This document shows, one piece after another, positions 3,098 to 59,510 of a DNA stretch of 64,000 nucleotides. The notes under the pieces were generated by a model. The model saw only the letters and a list, made by a program, of their open reading frames with translations. It was not told where the DNA came from and did no database searches. A program made the position numbers and the translations under genes. This DNA comes from Escherichia coli (lineage in GTDB: Bacteria > Pseudomonadota > Gammaproteobacteria > Enterobacterales > Enterobacteriaceae): the NCBI RefSeq assembly GCF_003334385.1, contig NZ_QOWN01000006.1, one strand, 5' to 3'. How positions within the stretch are numbered: the stretch's first letter is position 1; every line of letters starts with the position of its first letter.

Positions 3098-3619
3098 TTA
3101 ACGCAGTCGCCCTCTCGCCAGGTTCAGCCGCGATTCGCTCATCTGCATCGCATTCTGACTAACGTGGCAGTGGGTGATAGCAATCGCCAGCGCATCGGCG
3201 GCATCCGCCTGTGGATTAGCGGGCAGTTTCAGCAAGGTGCGGACCATATGCTGCACCTGGCTTTTTTCGGCACTGCCAATACCTACCACCGTTTGCTTTA
3301 CCTGACGTGCCGCGTATTCAAATACTGGCAACTCCTGATTCACCGCCGCCACAATCGCCACGCCGCGCGCCTGGCCCAGTTTCAGGGCTGAGTCAGCGTT
3401 CTTTGCCATAAAGACTTGTTCAATGGCGAAATAATCAGGCTGGAACTGGGTGATGATTTCCGTCACGCCCGCATAGATGAGTTTCAGACGAGACGGTAAA
3501 TCATCCACTTTGGTGCGGATGCATCCGCTACCCAGGTAGGACAGTTGCCTACCTACCTGGCGGATGACGCCGTAGCCGGTCACGCGCGAACCCGGATCAA
3601 TGCCGAGAATAATAGCCAT
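3098..3619 (-). CDS. ruvC: Crossover junction endodeoxyribonuclease RuvC
   Basis: Translation [18 protein letters not shown] recognised as RuvC; 173 aa from the second Met. Confidence 0.95.
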
Positions 3620-3653
3620 CACGCGTCTCCGTTTTGCTGTTTAGCAGGCCTCA

Positions 3654-4394
3654 TCAGAGAGTCGCTGCGACCTCATCAGAGATTTCACCGTTATGGTAAA
3701 CTTCCTGCACGTCGTCGCAATCTTCCAGCATATCGATCAGACGCATCAGTTTCGGTGCGGTTTCTGCATCCATATCAGCTTTGGTAGACGGGATCATGGA
3801 AACTTCCGCGCTGTCTGCTTTCAGACCTGCCGCTTCCAGAGCGTCGCGCACTTTACCCATTTCTTCCCATGCAGTGTAGACATCAATCGCGCCGTCATCA
3901 TAGGTCACAACGTCTTCAGCACCTGCTTCCAGTGCTGCTTCCATGATGGTGTCTTCATCGCCTTTCTCGAAGGAGATCACGCCTTTTTTGCTGAACAGAT
4001 AGGCAACGGAACCATCAGTACCGAGGTTACCGCCACATTTGCTAAATGCATGACGCACTTCAGCAACGGTACGGTTGCGGTTGTCAGACAGACATTCAAT
4101 CATGATTGCCGTGCCGCCAGGACCGTAACCTTCGTAGATGATGGTTTCCATGTTTGCATCATCATCACCGCCCACACCACGTGCAATTGCGCGGTTCAGT
4201 GTGTCACGGGTCATGTTGTTAGACAGTGCTTTATCCACCGCCGCACGCAGACGCGGGTTAGCGTCCGGATCGCCACCGCCCAGCTTAGCCGCGGTTACCA
4301 GCTCACGAATGATTTTAGTGAAGATTTTACCGCGCTTAGCATCCTGCGCAGCTTTACGATGTCTGGTGTTGGCCCATTTACTATGACCTGCCAT
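3654..4394 (-). CDS. yebC: YebC/PmpR-family transcriptional regulator
   Basis: 246-aa ORF beginning [23 protein letters not shown], upstream of ruvC on the same strand. Confidence 0.95.
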
Positions 4395-4422
4395 AAAAAT
4401 ATCTCCAGATAGCCCTGCCTGT

Positions 4423-4875
4423 TCAGGCAGCGTTAATTACAAACTGTTCAATCGCCTGCCGGTTGCTCCAGGACTTAGTGAGCGCCGCCGCAGCAGGCGC
4501 ATCAAGCCACTTGTAAGCCAGATGTTCAGTGAAAACGATCTGCCGCTCGTGCGGAAGCGCAAGACAGAACCATGATTCCGTATTACGCGTCACGCCCGGC
4601 GCATAGCGATGACGTAAATGTGAAAAAATTTCAAACTCTACCGTGCGCTGACAGTCAATTAAGGTCAGTTGTTCAGCGACAACATCAATGGTGACCTCTT
4701 CCTTTACTTCGCGCATGGCAGCTTGCGGCGCGGTTTCACCCTCTTCCACGCTGCCGGTTACCGACTGCCAGAAATCGGGATCGTCACGCCGCTGCAACAT
4801 CAGCACCCGTTTCGTATCTTGTGCGTAGATGACCACTAAGATCGAAACGGGACGCTTATACACTTTATCCTTCAC
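4423..4875 (-). CDS. nudB: Dihydroneopterin triphosphate pyrophosphatase NudB (GTG start)
   Basis: Translation from in-frame GTG ([15 protein letters not shown]..., 150 aa) matches NudB; Nudix box present. Confidence 0.9.
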
Positions 4876-4992
4876 GCTGCCTCTTCGTTGACTGCCTTCG
4901 CTCATCCCATTCACATAGTTATCTATGCTCATGGGAGTTCACTCAGTTGCCGCCTCGATGCAACGCGAATGATTTCGTGTATTTGAGTCATA

Positions 4993-6765
4993 TCAGTTAT
5001 TCTCAGCCTTCTTCACAACCTGAATGCTCAGCTCAGCCAGTGCAGTCGGGTTAGCAAAGCTCGGTGCTTCAGTCATCAGACACGCTGCCGCCGTGGTTTT
5101 CGGGAAGGCGATAACGTCACGGATATTGTCGGTGCCGGTCAGCAGCATGGTCAGACGGTCAAGACCGAATGCCAGACCTGCGTGCGGCGGAGTACCGTAT
5201 TTCAGAGCGTCGAGCAGGAAGCCGAATTTCTCGCGCTGTTCCTCTTCGTTGATACCCAGAATACCAAACACCGTCTGCTGCATATCACCATTATGGATAC
5301 GTACTGAACCACCGCCCACTTCGTAACCATTGATGACCATATCGTAAGCGTTCGCCACCGCATTTTCCGGTGCAGCTTTCAGTTCTGCAGCCGTCATATC
5401 TTTCGGTGAGGTGAACGGATGGTGCATTGCCGTCAGGCCGCCTTCACCGTCGTCTTCAAACATCGGGAAGTCGATAACCCACAGCGGTGCCCATTTGCTT
5501 TCGTCGGTCAGACCAAGGTCTTTACCCACTTTCAGGCGCAGTGCACCCATCGCGTCGGCAACAATTTTCTTGTTGTCGGCACCGAAGAAAATCATATCGC
5601 CATCTTGCGCGGCAGTACGATCCAGGATGTCTTCGATGATTTCTGCATTAAGGAACTTCGCTACCGGGCTGTTGATACCTTCCAGACCTTTCGCGCGTTC
5701 GTTAACTTTGATGTAAGCCAGACCTTTCGCGCCGTAGATTTTAACGAAGTTACCGTATTCGTCGATCTGCTTACGGGTCAGCGATGCGCCGCCCGGAACG
5801 CGCAGAGCCGCTACGCGACCTTTCGGATCGTTCGCCGGACCTGCAAATACAGCAAACTCAACAGATTTCAGCAGATCAGCAACGTCAGTCAGTTCCATCG
5901 GGTTACGCAGATCCGGTTTATCAGAACCATAACGGCGTTCTGCTTCCGCAAAGGTCATTACCGGGAAATCGCCCAGATCCACACCCTTCACTTCCAGCCA
6001 CAGATGACGCACCAGCGCTTCCATCACTTCACGCACTTGCGGCGCGGTCATGAAAGAAGTTTCCACATCGATCTGAGTAAATTCAGGCTGACGGTCAGCA
6101 CGCAGGTCTTCGTCACGGAAGCATTTAACGATCTGATAGTAACGGTCAAAACCGGACATCATCAGCAGCTGTTTGAACAACTGCGGGGATTGCGGCAGTG
6201 CGTAGAATTTACCTTTGTGCACACGAGAAGGCACCAGGTAGTCACGCGCGCCTTCCGGCGTGGCTTTGGTCAGCATCGGAGTTTCGATGTCGAGGAAGCC
6301 GTGGTCATCCATAAAACGGCGCACCAGGCTGGTGATTTTAGCGCGGGTTTTCAGGCGCTGAGCCATTTCCGGACGACGCAGGTCGAGGTAGCGGTATTTC
6401 AGACGCGCTTCTTCGGTGTTGACGTGGTTAGAGTCAAGCGGCAGAACATCTGCGCGGTTGATGATAGTCAGCGAGGACGCCAGCACTTCGATTTCGCCGG
6501 TCGCCATATCGCGGTTAATATTTTTTTCGTCACGCGCACGTACGGTGCCCGTGACCTGAATGCAGAACTCATTACGCAGTTCAGAGGCCAGCTTTAACGC
6601 GTCCGCACGATCCGGATCGAAAAATACCTGCACGATACCTTCGCGGTCGCGCATATCGATGAAGATCAGGCTACCAAGATCACGACGACGGTTGACCCAA
6701 CCACACAGAGTCACCTGCTGCCCCACGTGGGACAAACGGAGCTGTCCACAATATTCTGTACGCAT
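4993..6765 (-). CDS. aspS: Aspartate--tRNA ligase
   Basis: 590-aa ORF with class II aminoacyl-tRNA synthetase motifs; recognised as AspS. Confidence 0.97.
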
Positions 6766-23290: not shown

Positions 23291-24744
<1,454 letters not shown>

Positions 24745-24746
24745 CG

Positions 24747-25607
24747 TTAATCCTTACTTAGCGCATACACCGTCTGACCACGCAGCGTGAAGCGGCGCTC
24801 AAGGTGGCTAAAGTTTTCAGAGTGACCCGCAAACAGCAATCCGTCGGGTTTAAGGAGCGGAACAAAGCGGCGCAAAATCTCCTGCTGGGTAGTTTGATCG
24901 AAGTAGATCATGACGTTACGACAGAAGATCGCATCAAACGGCCCCGGCACGGTGTACTGTTTCGCCAGTAGATTCAGCGGGGCAAAATCAACATAGTTCG
25001 CCAGCTCCTGACGCACGCGTACCAGCCCTTCATGCGGCCCCGTCCCTCGCATGAAATACCGTTGCAGTTGCTGCGGCGTCAGGTTTTTCAACTCTTCATG
25101 GCGATAGATACCGCTTCTGGCTTTTTCCAGCACTTCGGTGTCGATATCACTGGCAAACACTTTCCAGCGTCCGGGCGCGGTGCCCAATGTGTCAGCCAGC
25201 GTCATCGCAATGCTGTACGGCTCTTCGCCGGTCGAAGCCGCCGCGCTCCATACGCGATACTCGCCAGAACGGCGACGTGCGTGATCCGCGAGCAGAGGGA
25301 AATGATGTGCCTCACGGAAAAATGCCGTCAGATTCGTGGTCAGCGAATTGATAAACGCCTGCCACTCACCGCTGTGCTGATTAGATTCCAGCAAGTTCAG
25401 ATAATGACCGAAATCCGTCAGTCCCAGCGAACGCAAACGACGAACCAGTCGGTTGTAAACCATGTCGCGTTTATGGTCAGCCAGAACGATCCCGGCTCGT
25501 TGATAGATCAATTGACTTATCCGCCGAAAATGCGCGTCGGAAAGCGCCAGGCGCTCGGTCATCTGTAACAATAAAGACGTTTGCCCACAGGGCAGAGATG
25601 AAGTCAT
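24747..25607 (-). CDS. cheR: Chemotaxis methyltransferase CheR
   Basis: 286-aa ORF; 2-nt gap to cheB. Confidence 0.96.
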
Positions 25608-25625
25608 AGCGCCTTCTCAATCACT

Positions 25626-27227
25626 TCAGGATACCACTGGCGCAATTTGTAACTGCACCGACTCATGTCGTGCTACTTCATGTTCTTCAAGGGTAAATAC
25701 CGCCACACGCGACGAAAGATGGTCGGCCTGATTCGCCAGTTGTTCCGTTGCCACCGCCGCTTCTTCTACCAGCGAGGCGTTCTGCTGAGTCACCTGATCC
25801 ATCTGGCTGACAGCCTGTGCAACCTGCTCAATCCCCCGCTGTTGTTCTTCCGACGCAGAGGCAATTTCTCCCATAATGTCGTTCACGCGGGTCACCGAAC
25901 TGACAATATCGATCATGGTCGCGGCGGCGTTATTCACCAGTTTCGAACCCTGCTGGACACGATTGACTGACTCTTCGATCAGCCCTTTGATCTCTTTTGC
26001 TGCCTGCGCGCTACGGCTGGCAAGATTGCGCACTTCACCTGCCACTACCGCAAAACCACGCCCCTGCTCTCCGGCGCGAGCCGCTTCCACTGCCGCATTC
26101 AGGGCCAGAATATTGGTCTGGAAAGCAATTCCGTCGATAACGCTGATAATGTCGCCAATTTTTTGCGAGCTGGTGGCGATCTCCTGCATGGTGTGAGTCA
26201 TGGTACTGACCTGAACACCGCCCGCCTGCGCCGTTGTCGCGGCATTTTTTGCCAGTTCCGACGCCTGTCGTGCGTTATCGGCGTTTTGCCCTACCGTGGC
26301 GGTTAATTGCTCCATACTGGCGGCCGTTTGTGCCAGCGATGCCGCCTGCTGTTCGGTACGACTTGAGAGATCGTTATTGCCTGCGACAATCTCCGCGATA
26401 CCAATGTGCATCTCCTGGCTTCCCTTACGCACATCACTTACCGTCCCACGCAAAGCCTGCTGCATGGTCTTCAGACTGGCAAAAATGGCGGTGATCTCAT
26501 TACGACCATATACCGCAATCGGACGCGCCAGATTACCCGCAGCAATGCTGTCAAAATGGCTACCGATAATGGCCAGTGGTTGAACAATCATCTTGCGCGT
26601 CCACCACAGCGCACTGCTGATGTAGATCGCCGCAACAATAATCATGCTGATAAACACCAGTGCCGAAATCTGATAGTTACGCTGGCTTTGCGCACTGGCG
26701 GCTTCCAGCACATGGTTGATCTCCAGCTGCCAGGCCTCAAAGTTAACGTCAAACGCATTCTGTGATCCCTGCACCGGCGCAGTGAGGAAATCCGAAAGTT
26801 GATTACTTTCAAGCCAGGTCGCCTGATGTTCGAGATCGTTGTGCCAGCGGGCAAAACTTTTCTCCGTCTCTTTTTGCAATCCCCTGACGTGCTCGTTGCC
26901 CGCAGTCATCGCCATAAAACTTTTAAACAGCGTGGTGGATTGCGTCAGACTGGCGCGCGCCGTCGTCATCAACGTTTTAATGTCATCCGCCGGATAGCTA
27001 AGTGCCGTCAGAGTGCCCGCTTTGTTCAGCGCGGTACTGGCCTGTAACATTACCGCCCGAGTTTGCGCTAATGCCGCACGTTGCTGATTGCTCTGCTCGA
27101 CCTGATTCAGTCGTTGCAAATCGTCGCGAAATGCCCAAAAAGACATGCCGTTACTGCCAATCTGCAAGATCCCGCAGAGAATCAAAATTAAAAACAGCGT
27201 GGTCGAAATTCGAATACGATTAAACAT
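25626..27227 (-). CDS. tap: Methyl-accepting chemotaxis protein Tap (dipeptide sensor)
   Basis: About 533 aa from ATG 27227 (MFNRIRISTTLFLIL); shares the conserved MCP signalling domain with the adjacent tar. Confidence 0.93.
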   Translation of the reverse strand: MFNRIRISTTLFLILILCGILQIGSNGMSFWAFRDDLQRLNQVEQSNQQRAALAQTRAVMLQASTALNKAGTLTALSYPADDIKTLMTTARASLTQSTTLFKSFMAMTAGNEHVRGLQKETEKSFARWHNDLEHQATWLESNQLSDFLTAPVQGSQNAFDVNFEAWQLEINHVLEAASAQSQRNYQISALVFISMIIVAAIYISSALWWTRKMIVQPLAIIGSHFDSIAAGNLARPIAVYGRNEITAIFASLKTMQQALRGTVSDVRKGSQEMHIGIAEIVAGNNDLSSRTEQQAASLAQTAASMEQLTATVGQNADNARQASELAKNAATTAQAGGVQVSTMTHTMQEIATSSQKIGDIISVIDGIAFQTNILALNAAVEAARAGEQGRGFAVVAGEVRNLASRSAQAAKEIKGLIEESVNRVQQGSKLVNNAAATMIDIVSSVTRVNDIMGEIASASEEQQRGIEQVAQAVSQMDQVTQQNASLVEEAAVATEQLANQADHLSSRVAVFTLEEHEVARHESVQLQIAPVVS

Positions 27228-27272
27228 CAACGCTCCCCATCAGGCGGCAATGACCGCGTTAGTAAATACTCG

Positions 27273-28934
27273 TCAAAATGTTTCCCAGTTTGGATCTTGT
27301 TCAGCAATTCGCAGTCGTGGCTGAGCCGGTGGTTGCTCACTGGCAGGACGGGATGGTGTTTGCGGTTTATTGGTGAGTGGGCTGGCTGCCAGACGGAACG
27401 CGGAAACTGCTTGCGTTAAACGACTCGCCTGTTCTTCCAGCGCAGCGGCGGCGGCAGCTGATTCCTGCACCAGCGATGCGTTCTGTTGCGTGACGCGATC
27501 CATTTCCGAAACCGCCAATGCGACTTGATCGATGCCACGGCTCTGTTCATCCGATGCCGATGCAATCTCGCCCATAATGTCAGTCACGCGAGTGACAGCA
27601 TTGACGATATTGTTCATTGTTTCCCCGGCGCTTTCGACCAGCACCGAACCGGTATCAACGCGTGAGACGGAGTCTTCAATGAGGGCTTTGATCTCTTTTG
27701 CCGCCTGGGCGCTGCGACTGGCAAGATTACGCACTTCACCCGCCACCACGGCAAAACCACGGCCCTGTTCACCCGCACGCGCGGCTTCAACCGCGGCATT
27801 CAGCGCGAGGATATTAGTCTGGAAGGCAATACCGTCGATAACGCTGATAATGTCGGCAATTTTCTTCGAACTATCGGCGATCTCATGCATCGTTTTCACT
27901 ACGCCATCCACCACTTTGCCGCCGTGCTGGGCGGTGTCGGAGGCACTTTGCGCCAGTTGCGAGGCCTGGCGGGCGTTATCGGCGTTTTGCTTCACTGTCG
28001 CGGTGAGCTGCTCCATGCTGGCGGCAGTTTCTTCCAGCGCGGATGCCTGCTGTTCAGTACGGGAGGAAAGATCGGTGTTGCCCGCCGCAATTTCACGGGT
28101 ACCGGCATAGATGGCATCTGAACCTTCGCGGACATGAGTGACGGTGTCAGTCAAAGAGCGTTGCATATGTGAAACGCTCTGCGCCAGGTCGCCCATTTCA
28201 CTGCGCCCGTCAATGGTCAGGGTATTCGCCAGGTTACCACCGGCGATTTCGCGAATGTGAGCAATAATTTTTGCCAGCGGAGTAAGCAACATACGGCGAA
28301 TGCCGTACCACGCCACCAGCAGAATCAATACCACCACCAGCGCGATAACCGCCAGTTGCCACTGGGCAAATCGGTAATCATCTGCGTTGTCAGTGACGAT
28401 ATCGCGATACAGTTTTTCACTGCTGAGGGCGTACTGAGCAAACGCTTCGCCCATTGCATTTTGCATTCCCTGGGTTGGCTGAGCGAAATAAGCTCCAGTA
28501 TTGCCATAATCTAGATAATCAATCAGTTCAGTTAACGCTGTGTAATAGTTTTTATATTTTTCATCAATATTACGACTGGTAGCGACCATTTCAGGTAACG
28601 GTGCCATGCTTTTGAATTTTTTATAATGCGTCGCTGCCTGCGCCAATGTTTTCCTGGCGCTATCGAGCAATTCAACTTTGGCGTTACTTTGTTGATTGGA
28701 GGAATCCATCATCATCCGTACCGCTGAACGACTCAGGTTAATGCGCGTTTGCAGCATTAAATCCCAGGTTGACGTCAGCTCGCCCTGCTGTTCCCGTAAT
28801 TGATTGGAAACCACAAAGCTCTTCTGGCTATGGTGAAGGGAAGAAAAAAACAGACTGCCGGAAATAAGCTGTAACAGTGCGAATACCCCCAGCACCATTA
28901 CCAACAGCGTGACTACGCGGATACGGTTAATCAT
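27273..28934 (-). CDS. tar: Methyl-accepting chemotaxis protein Tar (aspartate sensor)
   Basis: Start set at ATG 28934 ([22 protein letters not shown]), 553 aa; C-terminal NWETF pentapeptide present. Confidence 0.95.
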
Positions 28935-28965
28935 AAGGCACCTTCCTGAAAACAAGTTGATCTCG

Positions 28966-28992
28966 TTATCGGCAAGGAGGGGGGAAACTTTA
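28966..28992 (-). promoter_or_regulatory. Sigma-28 promoter of the tar-tap-cheRBYZ operon
   Basis: Minus strand reads TAAAGTTT, 11-nt spacer, GCCGATAA, about 30 bp upstream of the tar ATG. Confidence 0.85.
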
Positions 28993-29023
28993 TTGCTGAT
29001 GCCACCCGCCGCGAAATTGAAAT

Positions 29024-29052
29024 AAAAAACCCGATGCGCAGATCATCGGGTT
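29024..29052 (-). terminator. Rho-independent terminator downstream of cheW
   Basis: Minus strand: cccgatg-atctgcg-catcggg hairpin followed by ttttttatttc. Confidence 0.7.
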
Positions 29053-29078
29053 CATTTCAATTGAGGAAATCGGGAGAA

Positions 29079-29582
29079 TTACGCCACTTCTGACGCCGCG
29101 CTATCTAACAGCGCCATCTCTTCGCTGTTCAGCAGTTTTTCGATGTTCACCAGAATCAACATCCGGTCGCCCAGTGCGCCCAGTCCAGTGAGATATTCTG
29201 TTGAAAGCGTCACGGCAAATTCCGGTGCCGGACGAATTTGCTCCGCCGTCAATGAAAGCACGTCTGAGACGCCGTCAACCACGATGCCGACCACCCGCTG
29301 TCCGAGATTCAGGACGATAACTACCGTGTTGTCGTTATAGTCCACATCCACCTGGCTGAACTTAATTCGTAAGTCAACAATCGGCACAATAACGCCGCGC
29401 AGATTCGTGACGCCTTTGATAAACGCTGGCGTGTTCGCAATCCGTGTTACCTGATCGTAGCCACGGATCTCCTGCACTTTCAGGATATCAATACCGTACT
29501 CTTCATCACCAAGGGTAAATACCAGAAATTCCTGGCCTGACGGCTCGCTGGCCAGCTTTGTTACATTCGTCATACCGGTCAT
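29079..29582 (-). CDS. cheW: Chemotaxis coupling protein CheW
   Basis: 167-aa ORF beginning [32 protein letters not shown]. Confidence 0.97.
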
Positions 29583-29602
29583 ATTGTTACCTTTTTACTC
29601 AT

Positions 29603-32494
<2,892 letters not shown>

Positions 32495-59364: not shown

Positions 59365-59391
59365 TTATCGTCTGTCGTAAAACAACCTTTA
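59365..59391 (-). promoter_or_regulatory. Sigma-28 promoter of fliC
   Basis: Minus strand reads TAAAGGTT, 11-nt spacer, GACGATAA. Confidence 0.8.
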
Positions 59392-59483: not shown

Positions 59484-59510
59484 TAAACTTTGCGCAATTC
59501 AGGCCGATAA
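59484..59510 (+). promoter_or_regulatory. Sigma-28 promoter of fliDST
   Basis: Plus strand reads TAAACTTT, 11-nt spacer, GCCGATAA, about 45 bp upstream of the fliD ATG. Confidence 0.85.

Follow-up and report, generated by a model that had tools for sequence, protein, structure and literature searches.

The cheW-tar junction of Escherichia coli: an intrinsic terminator and a sigma-28 promoter at the boundary between two adjacent chemotaxis operons

The motAB-cheAW (mocha) and tar-tap-cheRBYZ (meche) genes of Escherichia coli are described in the literature as two operons. This organization, the FliA (sigma-28)-dependent promoter of tar and the 3' terminus downstream of cheW are already known and are textbook material. 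The junction analyzed here, located within a 64,000-nt stretch of E. coli DNA (the window), contains the same elements. Its tar promoter does not differ in sequence from the described meche promoter, which belongs to FliA class 3, and its terminator has the hairpin, U-tract and 3' end of the mocha terminator, which in other E. coli lineages has a T4 and not a T6 tract. A comparable arrangement exists at flgBCDEFGHIJ and flgKL, which, like the units on either side of the cheW-tar junction, are adjacent flagellar units, the downstream one having its own FliA class 3 promoter. At flgJ-flgK, co-transcription by read-through has been shown by RT-PCR, whereas cheW-tar has a canonical terminator and a mapped 3' end. 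In addition, both units at cheW-tar are class 3, unlike flgBCDEFGHIJ and flgKL. The Rfam family RF00116 (C0465) has also been placed at this junction, on the strand opposite to the cheW terminator and the tar promoter.

The region around the junction is E. coli K-12-like. Window positions 24243-34743 differ from positions 1968000-1978500 of MG1655 (NC_000913.3) at 3 of 10,501 positions, none of them inside the cheW-tar gap, which is identical to that of MG1655; the MG1655 coordinate is the window coordinate plus 1,943,757. The gene order on the minus strand is flhDC, motA, motB, cheA, cheW, tar, tap, cheR, cheB. The last gene of mocha, cheW (29079-29582, minus strand; 167 aa), was defined from the list of open reading frames and from the RefSeq annotation of MG1655, whose sequence is identical here, and has its TAA stop codon at 29081-29079. 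The first gene of meche, tar (27273-28934, minus strand), was defined from the same list and the MG1655 annotation. Its ATG at 28934 gives the 553-aa Tar protein, and the mechanically generated frame begins at an upstream TTG at 28955. The intergenic region is thus the 144 nt from 29078 to 28935 on the minus strand, flanked in RefSeq by cheW and tar, with no annotated feature between them. An earlier reading of this DNA, made from the sequence alone (the sequence-only reading), had assigned the genes and coordinates on the minus strand in the same way, and was correct according to both the sequence and the RefSeq annotation. Among 5426 complete E. coli genomes, 5384 contained a match of 95-100% identity to a 601-nt query spanning the junction, and the E. 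coli records listed carry tar and cheW annotations at the matched position. Elsewhere the window departs from MG1655. The fliD promoter (59484-59510, plus strand) reads ...CAGGCCGATAA in the window and ...CAGACCGATAA in the published MG1655 motif, indicating that the fliC/fliD region is not that of MG1655, although the DNA around cheW-tar is nearly identical.

The tar promoter (28966-28992, minus strand) consists of a -35 element TAAAGTTT (28992-28985), an 11-nt spacer (cccccctcctt) and a -10 element GCCGATAA (28973-28966). This arrangement, TAAAGTTT-N11-GCCGATAA, has no mismatches to the sigma-28 consensus and is the sole perfect site in the window. There were five sites with three or fewer mismatches in the 64 kb, compared to 0.58 expected, and none of 100 shuffled sequences reached five. 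The other four sites are the motA site inside flhC (33552-33578), the fliC site (59365-59391), the fliD site and a site in the interior of otsA (36784-36810). All five are in a published list of FliA sites, as the motA, fliC, fliD and tar promoters and an otsA-internal bound site (PMC4183435). The intragenic otsA site, on the plus strand, reads TGAAATTGCACCAGATCGAGCCGATAA and has three mismatches; FliA binding there scored low in ChIP (FAT 2), and a delta-fliA strain showed no change in expression (Fitzgerald et al. 2014, PMC4183435).

Published data connect the perfect site to the downstream operon. Fitzgerald et al. (2014, PMC4183435) reported a FliA ChIP-seq peak with a FAT score of 57 and the motif TAAAGTTTCCCCCCTCCTTGCCGATAAC, assigned to tar-tap-cheRBYZ, and this 28-mer is identical to window positions 28992-28965 on the minus strand. 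In the same study, normalized expression of tar-tap-cheRBYZ dropped from 251 in motile MG1655 to 0 in the delta-fliA strain. The sequence-only reading had proposed a textbook sigma-28 promoter for tar-tap-cheRBYZ at 28992-28966; the position is exact, and the ChIP-seq and expression data bear out the assignment. For well-characterized flagellar promoters, start sites lie 18-22 bp downstream of the center of the motif (follow-up FliA paper). By this distance rule, the predicted start of the tar transcript falls at 28957-28960, a range that includes the position of about 28958 expected by the earlier reading. The predicted 5' UTR (28935-28960, minus strand) would be about 23-26 nt long, with the Shine-Dalgarno sequence AGGAAGG at 28947-28941. 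The SMRT-Cappable-seq and Cappable-seq supplements contain no mapped tar 5' end and no full-length transcript for the locus.

Upstream of the promoter, between it and cheW, is a sequence with the features of an intrinsic terminator: past the stop codon, a G+C-rich stem-loop leads directly into a U-rich tract. A terminator scan identified a hairpin at 29053-29027 on the minus strand (GAACCCGAUG-aucugcg-CAUCGGGUUU) that has a 7-nt loop and 10 pairs, including five G-C pairs; the sequence after it is TTTATTTCAA. The core of the stem is CCCGAUG/CAUCGGG. The hairpin begins about 26 nt past the cheW stop codon and has a folding energy of -14.3 kcal/mol (z = -4.6), with none of 200 shuffled sequences as stable. 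Outer arms formed by an A-tract and the U-tract (AAUUGAAAU/AUUUCAAUU) extend it to 29062-29016, and the extended structure has a folding energy of -17.3 kcal/mol (z = -4.1). The U-tract itself, U6AU3 (UUUUUUAUUU), is at 29020-29029, and 27 nt separate its end at 29020 from the -35 element at 28992. Folding of the whole 144-nt region gave z = -2.2, driven by the terminator hairpin.

The position of the hairpin corresponds to a mapped 3' end. A 'Primary' 3' terminus of cheW has been reported on the minus strand at MG1655 positions 1972775-1972784, with 1972776 dominant (PMC10687069, Supplementary Data 3). The dominant position corresponds to window position 29019, the base immediately after the U6AU3 tract. 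The TRS fold sequence given for this terminus, UUUCCUCAAUUGAAAUGAACCCGAUGAUCUGCGCAUCGGGUUUUUUAUUUCA (PMC10687069), is window 29069-29018 on the minus strand, and a companion table lists a cheW 3' UTR of 61 nt (PMC10687069). Neither a cheW nor a tar entry was found in the eLife 2021 3'-end supplement. The sequence-only reading had placed the end of the motAB-cheAW transcript at a hairpin and U-tract at 29052-29024. The scan agrees with these limits to within 1-4 nt and the published 3' end at 29019 confirms the assignment. The reading had also put the promoter 30 bp further on, which is close: the distance is 31 nt when counted from 29024 and 27 nt from the end of the U-tract.

We conclude with high confidence that two neighboring FliA class 3 transcription units of the E. 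coli chemotaxis region meet at this junction. Transcripts starting at the sigma-28 promoter inside flhC traverse motA, motB, cheA and cheW and stop at the Rho-independent terminator 26-60 nt past the cheW stop codon, where a G+C-rich hairpin of 7-10 bp is followed by U6AU3, giving a 3' end at about 29019. The perfect-consensus promoter 27 bases further on recruits FliA-RNA polymerase, and transcription of tar-tap-cheRBYZ is predicted to begin about 24 nt before the tar start codon. It is plausible that the terminator also keeps polymerases coming from motA from occluding the tar promoter 27 nt downstream.

Related genomes were used to examine whether the two elements behave as parts of separate units. 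We compared 80 loci from Enterobacteriaceae, found by a CheW scan and restricted to one genome per species. The promoter comparison was limited to the 19 loci in which the first receptor gene after cheW starts inside the fetched DNA. Upstream of the receptor gene, all 19 have a sigma-28 motif that departs from the consensus at no more than one position, always with GCCGATAA intact and 11 nt between the two elements. The distance from the end of the motif to the ATG is 31 nt in 17 of the 19, and the sequences of the promoter spacers are unrelated between loci. A terminator-like hairpin with a T-tract was found within 110 nt of the cheW stop codon in 48 of 79 loci. Dinucleotide shuffling of the post-cheW regions gave 9.4 ± 2.8 positive loci (maximum 16), compared to the 48 observed, and 7% of control windows from coding sequence on the same strand were positive. 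The hairpins are not homologous between genera. With these simple criteria no hairpin was found in 31 of the 79 loci, many of which have REP-like palindromes without a T-tract.

The DNA between the two elements varies widely in length and content. The distance from cheW to the receptor gene is shortest in Escherichia (145 nt), is 238-375 nt in Salmonella diarizonae, Cedecea, Atlantibacter and Kosakonia, and reaches 1.6-1.9 kb or more at the upper end. In Citrobacter and Enterobacter, a convergent gene for a DctA/GltP-like dicarboxylate/amino-acid symporter lies between cheW and the tar orthologue (minus strand of the fetched loci, 3080-4339 in L005 and 3109-4473 in L020; scores below the NCBIfam curated cut-offs). 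The location of an acidic amino-acid-type transporter gene beside the gene for the aspartate receptor is a curious neighborhood. Downstream of cheW, Salmonella arizonae and several further genera have open reading frames of about 190 aa with signal-peptide-like N-termini. Those at 3369-5287 on the plus strand of L053 have a weak match to a fimbrial chaperone family, and similar loci are L025, L034, L049, L056, L073 and L077. These sequences suggest that a fimbrial-type cluster has been inserted at the junction in S. arizonae and these other genera. The promoter stays with tar, a terminator-like hairpin stays with cheW, and unrelated genes can be inserted between them, which is the behavior expected of two independent transcription units. 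The comparison is a clean illustration of operon boundaries as separable modules; the junction itself has little significance beyond confirming the annotation.

The main alternative is that the hairpin is a weak or partial terminator, or a structure that stabilizes or processes the mRNA, and that the region is effectively one long operon with an internal promoter, in which read-through from the motA promoter accounts for much of the expression of tar-tap-cheRBYZ. We consider this unlikely. It could draw some support from the T4 tract in some E. coli lineages, including O157:H7, which could terminate less well. However, the hairpin and U-tract have the canonical features of an intrinsic terminator, and the tar promoter has a perfect consensus and strong FliA occupancy (FAT score 57). 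The published 3'-end data also argue against it. The value of R at the cheW terminus is 0.96, where R = L/(L+D) sets the 3'-end reads of a ±3-nt interval against those of the following 67 nt, so that few 3' ends fall in the 67 nt downstream of the U-tract; its authors describe R as essentially 1 minus read-through (PMC10687069). Together with the quality of the terminator, this value is consistent with efficient termination, although some read-through into tar may occur, R being a ratio of 3'-end reads and not a termination efficiency. Furthermore, convergent or unrelated genes separate the two units in related genera, and therefore read-through cannot be required.

The sequence-only reading had gone further, taking the spacing between terminator and promoter to imply limited read-through and independent dosing of the two operons. 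The first inference is invalid, since it is the terminator, and not the spacing, that bears on read-through; support for limited read-through itself is indirect. The second is overstated. The two operons do have separate promoters, and the arrangement allows separate promoter strengths, but both are FliA class 3 operons and a strong correlation between cheA and cheY levels has been reported in single cells. The two are thus not independently regulated in the strong sense. An antitermination mechanism involving MotR, S10 and NusB has also been suggested to increase mRNA abundance in both operons.

Variation at the junction within Escherichia was analyzed in an alignment of seq­uences from seven sources representing about four lineages (four E. 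coli alleles, one E. whittamii sequence and two from further Escherichia lineages). Little or no change is seen among the seven in the -35 and -10 elements, the core stem (CCCGAU/AUCGGG) or the tar 5' UTR; the variable parts are the hairpin loop, the spacer of the promoter and the DNA separating the terminator from the promoter. On the minus strand, 99.1% of hairpin cells are paired, and one outer pair shows compensatory change (G-C, G-U, A-U). Covariation support for the hairpin is weak and at most suggestive, and with only seven sequences pairing is not above that of column shuffles (254/500). The run of T after the stem (window 29024-29029) is polymorphic, O157:H7 FRIK2069 and JX21CE8 (L082 and L083) having GGGTTTTATTT (T4) in place of GGGTTTTTTATTT (T6). 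The O157-type intergenic allele was present at ≥99% identity in 332 of 5380 complete E. coli genomes, and T4 alleles of the O157:H7 type thus make up at least about 6% of complete genomes. In E. coli ETEC4079, an IS200C element (L085, 1593-2300), with tnpA oriented as cheW and tar, is inserted directly after GGGTTTTTTATT, at about window position 29021, leaving both terminator and promoter intact. A second genome, H32, also has a split match at the junction.

It is conceivable, and in our estimation quite unlikely, that the T6/T4 tract and IS200 variants tune read-through from the motA promoter into tar-tap-cheRBYZ between E. coli lineages or, less likely still, that C0465 exists as an antisense RNA interfering with the tar promoter. 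If such tuning occurred, lineages with different variants of the junction would differ in their ratio of receptor and CheRBYZ to CheA/CheW. The polymorphism in T-tract length would matter only if the stoichiometry of the chemotaxis proteins were measurably altered.

The antisense RNA itself is the subject of a further alternative, in which C0465 is a genuine small RNA made from the plus strand, antisense to the tar promoter and the 3' end of cheW, with the hairpin acting bidirectionally and serving as its terminator. The plus strand has a full-length match to RF00116, a legacy sRNA candidate derived from an array, at 28982-29059 (111.6 bits, compared to a gathering score of 40). This match takes in the cheW terminator hairpin as well as the sequence complementary to the tar -35 element and to part of its spacer. 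The hairpin also folds on the plus strand (-14.7 kcal/mol, z = -3.8), and the terminator scan lists it there with the tail CATTTCAATT. Nonetheless, we consider a genuine C0465 RNA very unlikely. RF00116 necessarily matches here because the model was built from this E. coli/Shigella sequence, and the match is confined to Escherichia loci. The family is based on an array screen from 2002, and C0465 is missing from the present RefSeq record of MG1655, where MotR and AsflhD are annotated nearby. Published overexpression of C0465 left biofilm formation, swimming, swarming and fimbriae unchanged. At the scan threshold, the plus strand has no sigma-70-like promoter preceding position 28982, and the 78-nt plus-strand RNA taken as a whole is no more stably folded than shuffled sequences (z = -0.35). 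Helix pairing among the Escherichia sequences, a small sample, is 89.8% on the plus strand compared to 99.1% on the minus strand, the lower value arising because G-U pairs become A-C. Most likely, the match reflects the palindromic terminator and the flanking promoter DNA, and not an independent gene.

Finally, the view that the tar promoter is a chance match to the consensus and that tar is transcribed from elsewhere has in its favor only the general caveat that a consensus match is not proof of function, and is effectively refuted by the zero-mismatch 16-base consensus (where even sites with up to three mismatches are expected less than once per 64 kb), by the FliA ChIP-seq and delta-fliA RNA-seq data (PMC4183435), and by the retention of the motif near the ATG in all 19 related loci while the spacer varies.

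We also considered and rejected other candidate features in the gap. A 21-codon open reading frame at 29055-28990 on the minus strand, running across the terminator into the -35 element, is a chance frame. It has no Shine-Dalgarno sequence and is not conserved: in E. whittamii a stop cuts it short at 12 codons, and in the T4 allele the frame is shifted. A sigma-70-like site on the plus strand at 29017-29046 (TTGAAA-18-GATCAT, 9 of 12 matches) is attributable to chance, one such site being found and 1.7 expected. The weak minus-strand Rfam matches, to C0465 (21 bits) and to a Betaproteobacteria toxic sRNA (19.8 bits), are far below the gathering scores, with E values of about 0.5-0.9.

At the other end of the upstream operon, the sigma-28-dependent small RNA MotR of the current MG1655 annotation (1977208-1977302) corresponds to window 33451-33545 on the minus strand. 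MotR is located in the motA 5' UTR, where it overlaps the 3' end of flhC and lies directly downstream of the motA sigma-28 promoter at 33552-33578. A motR terminus at 1977208 is present in the published 3'-end table.
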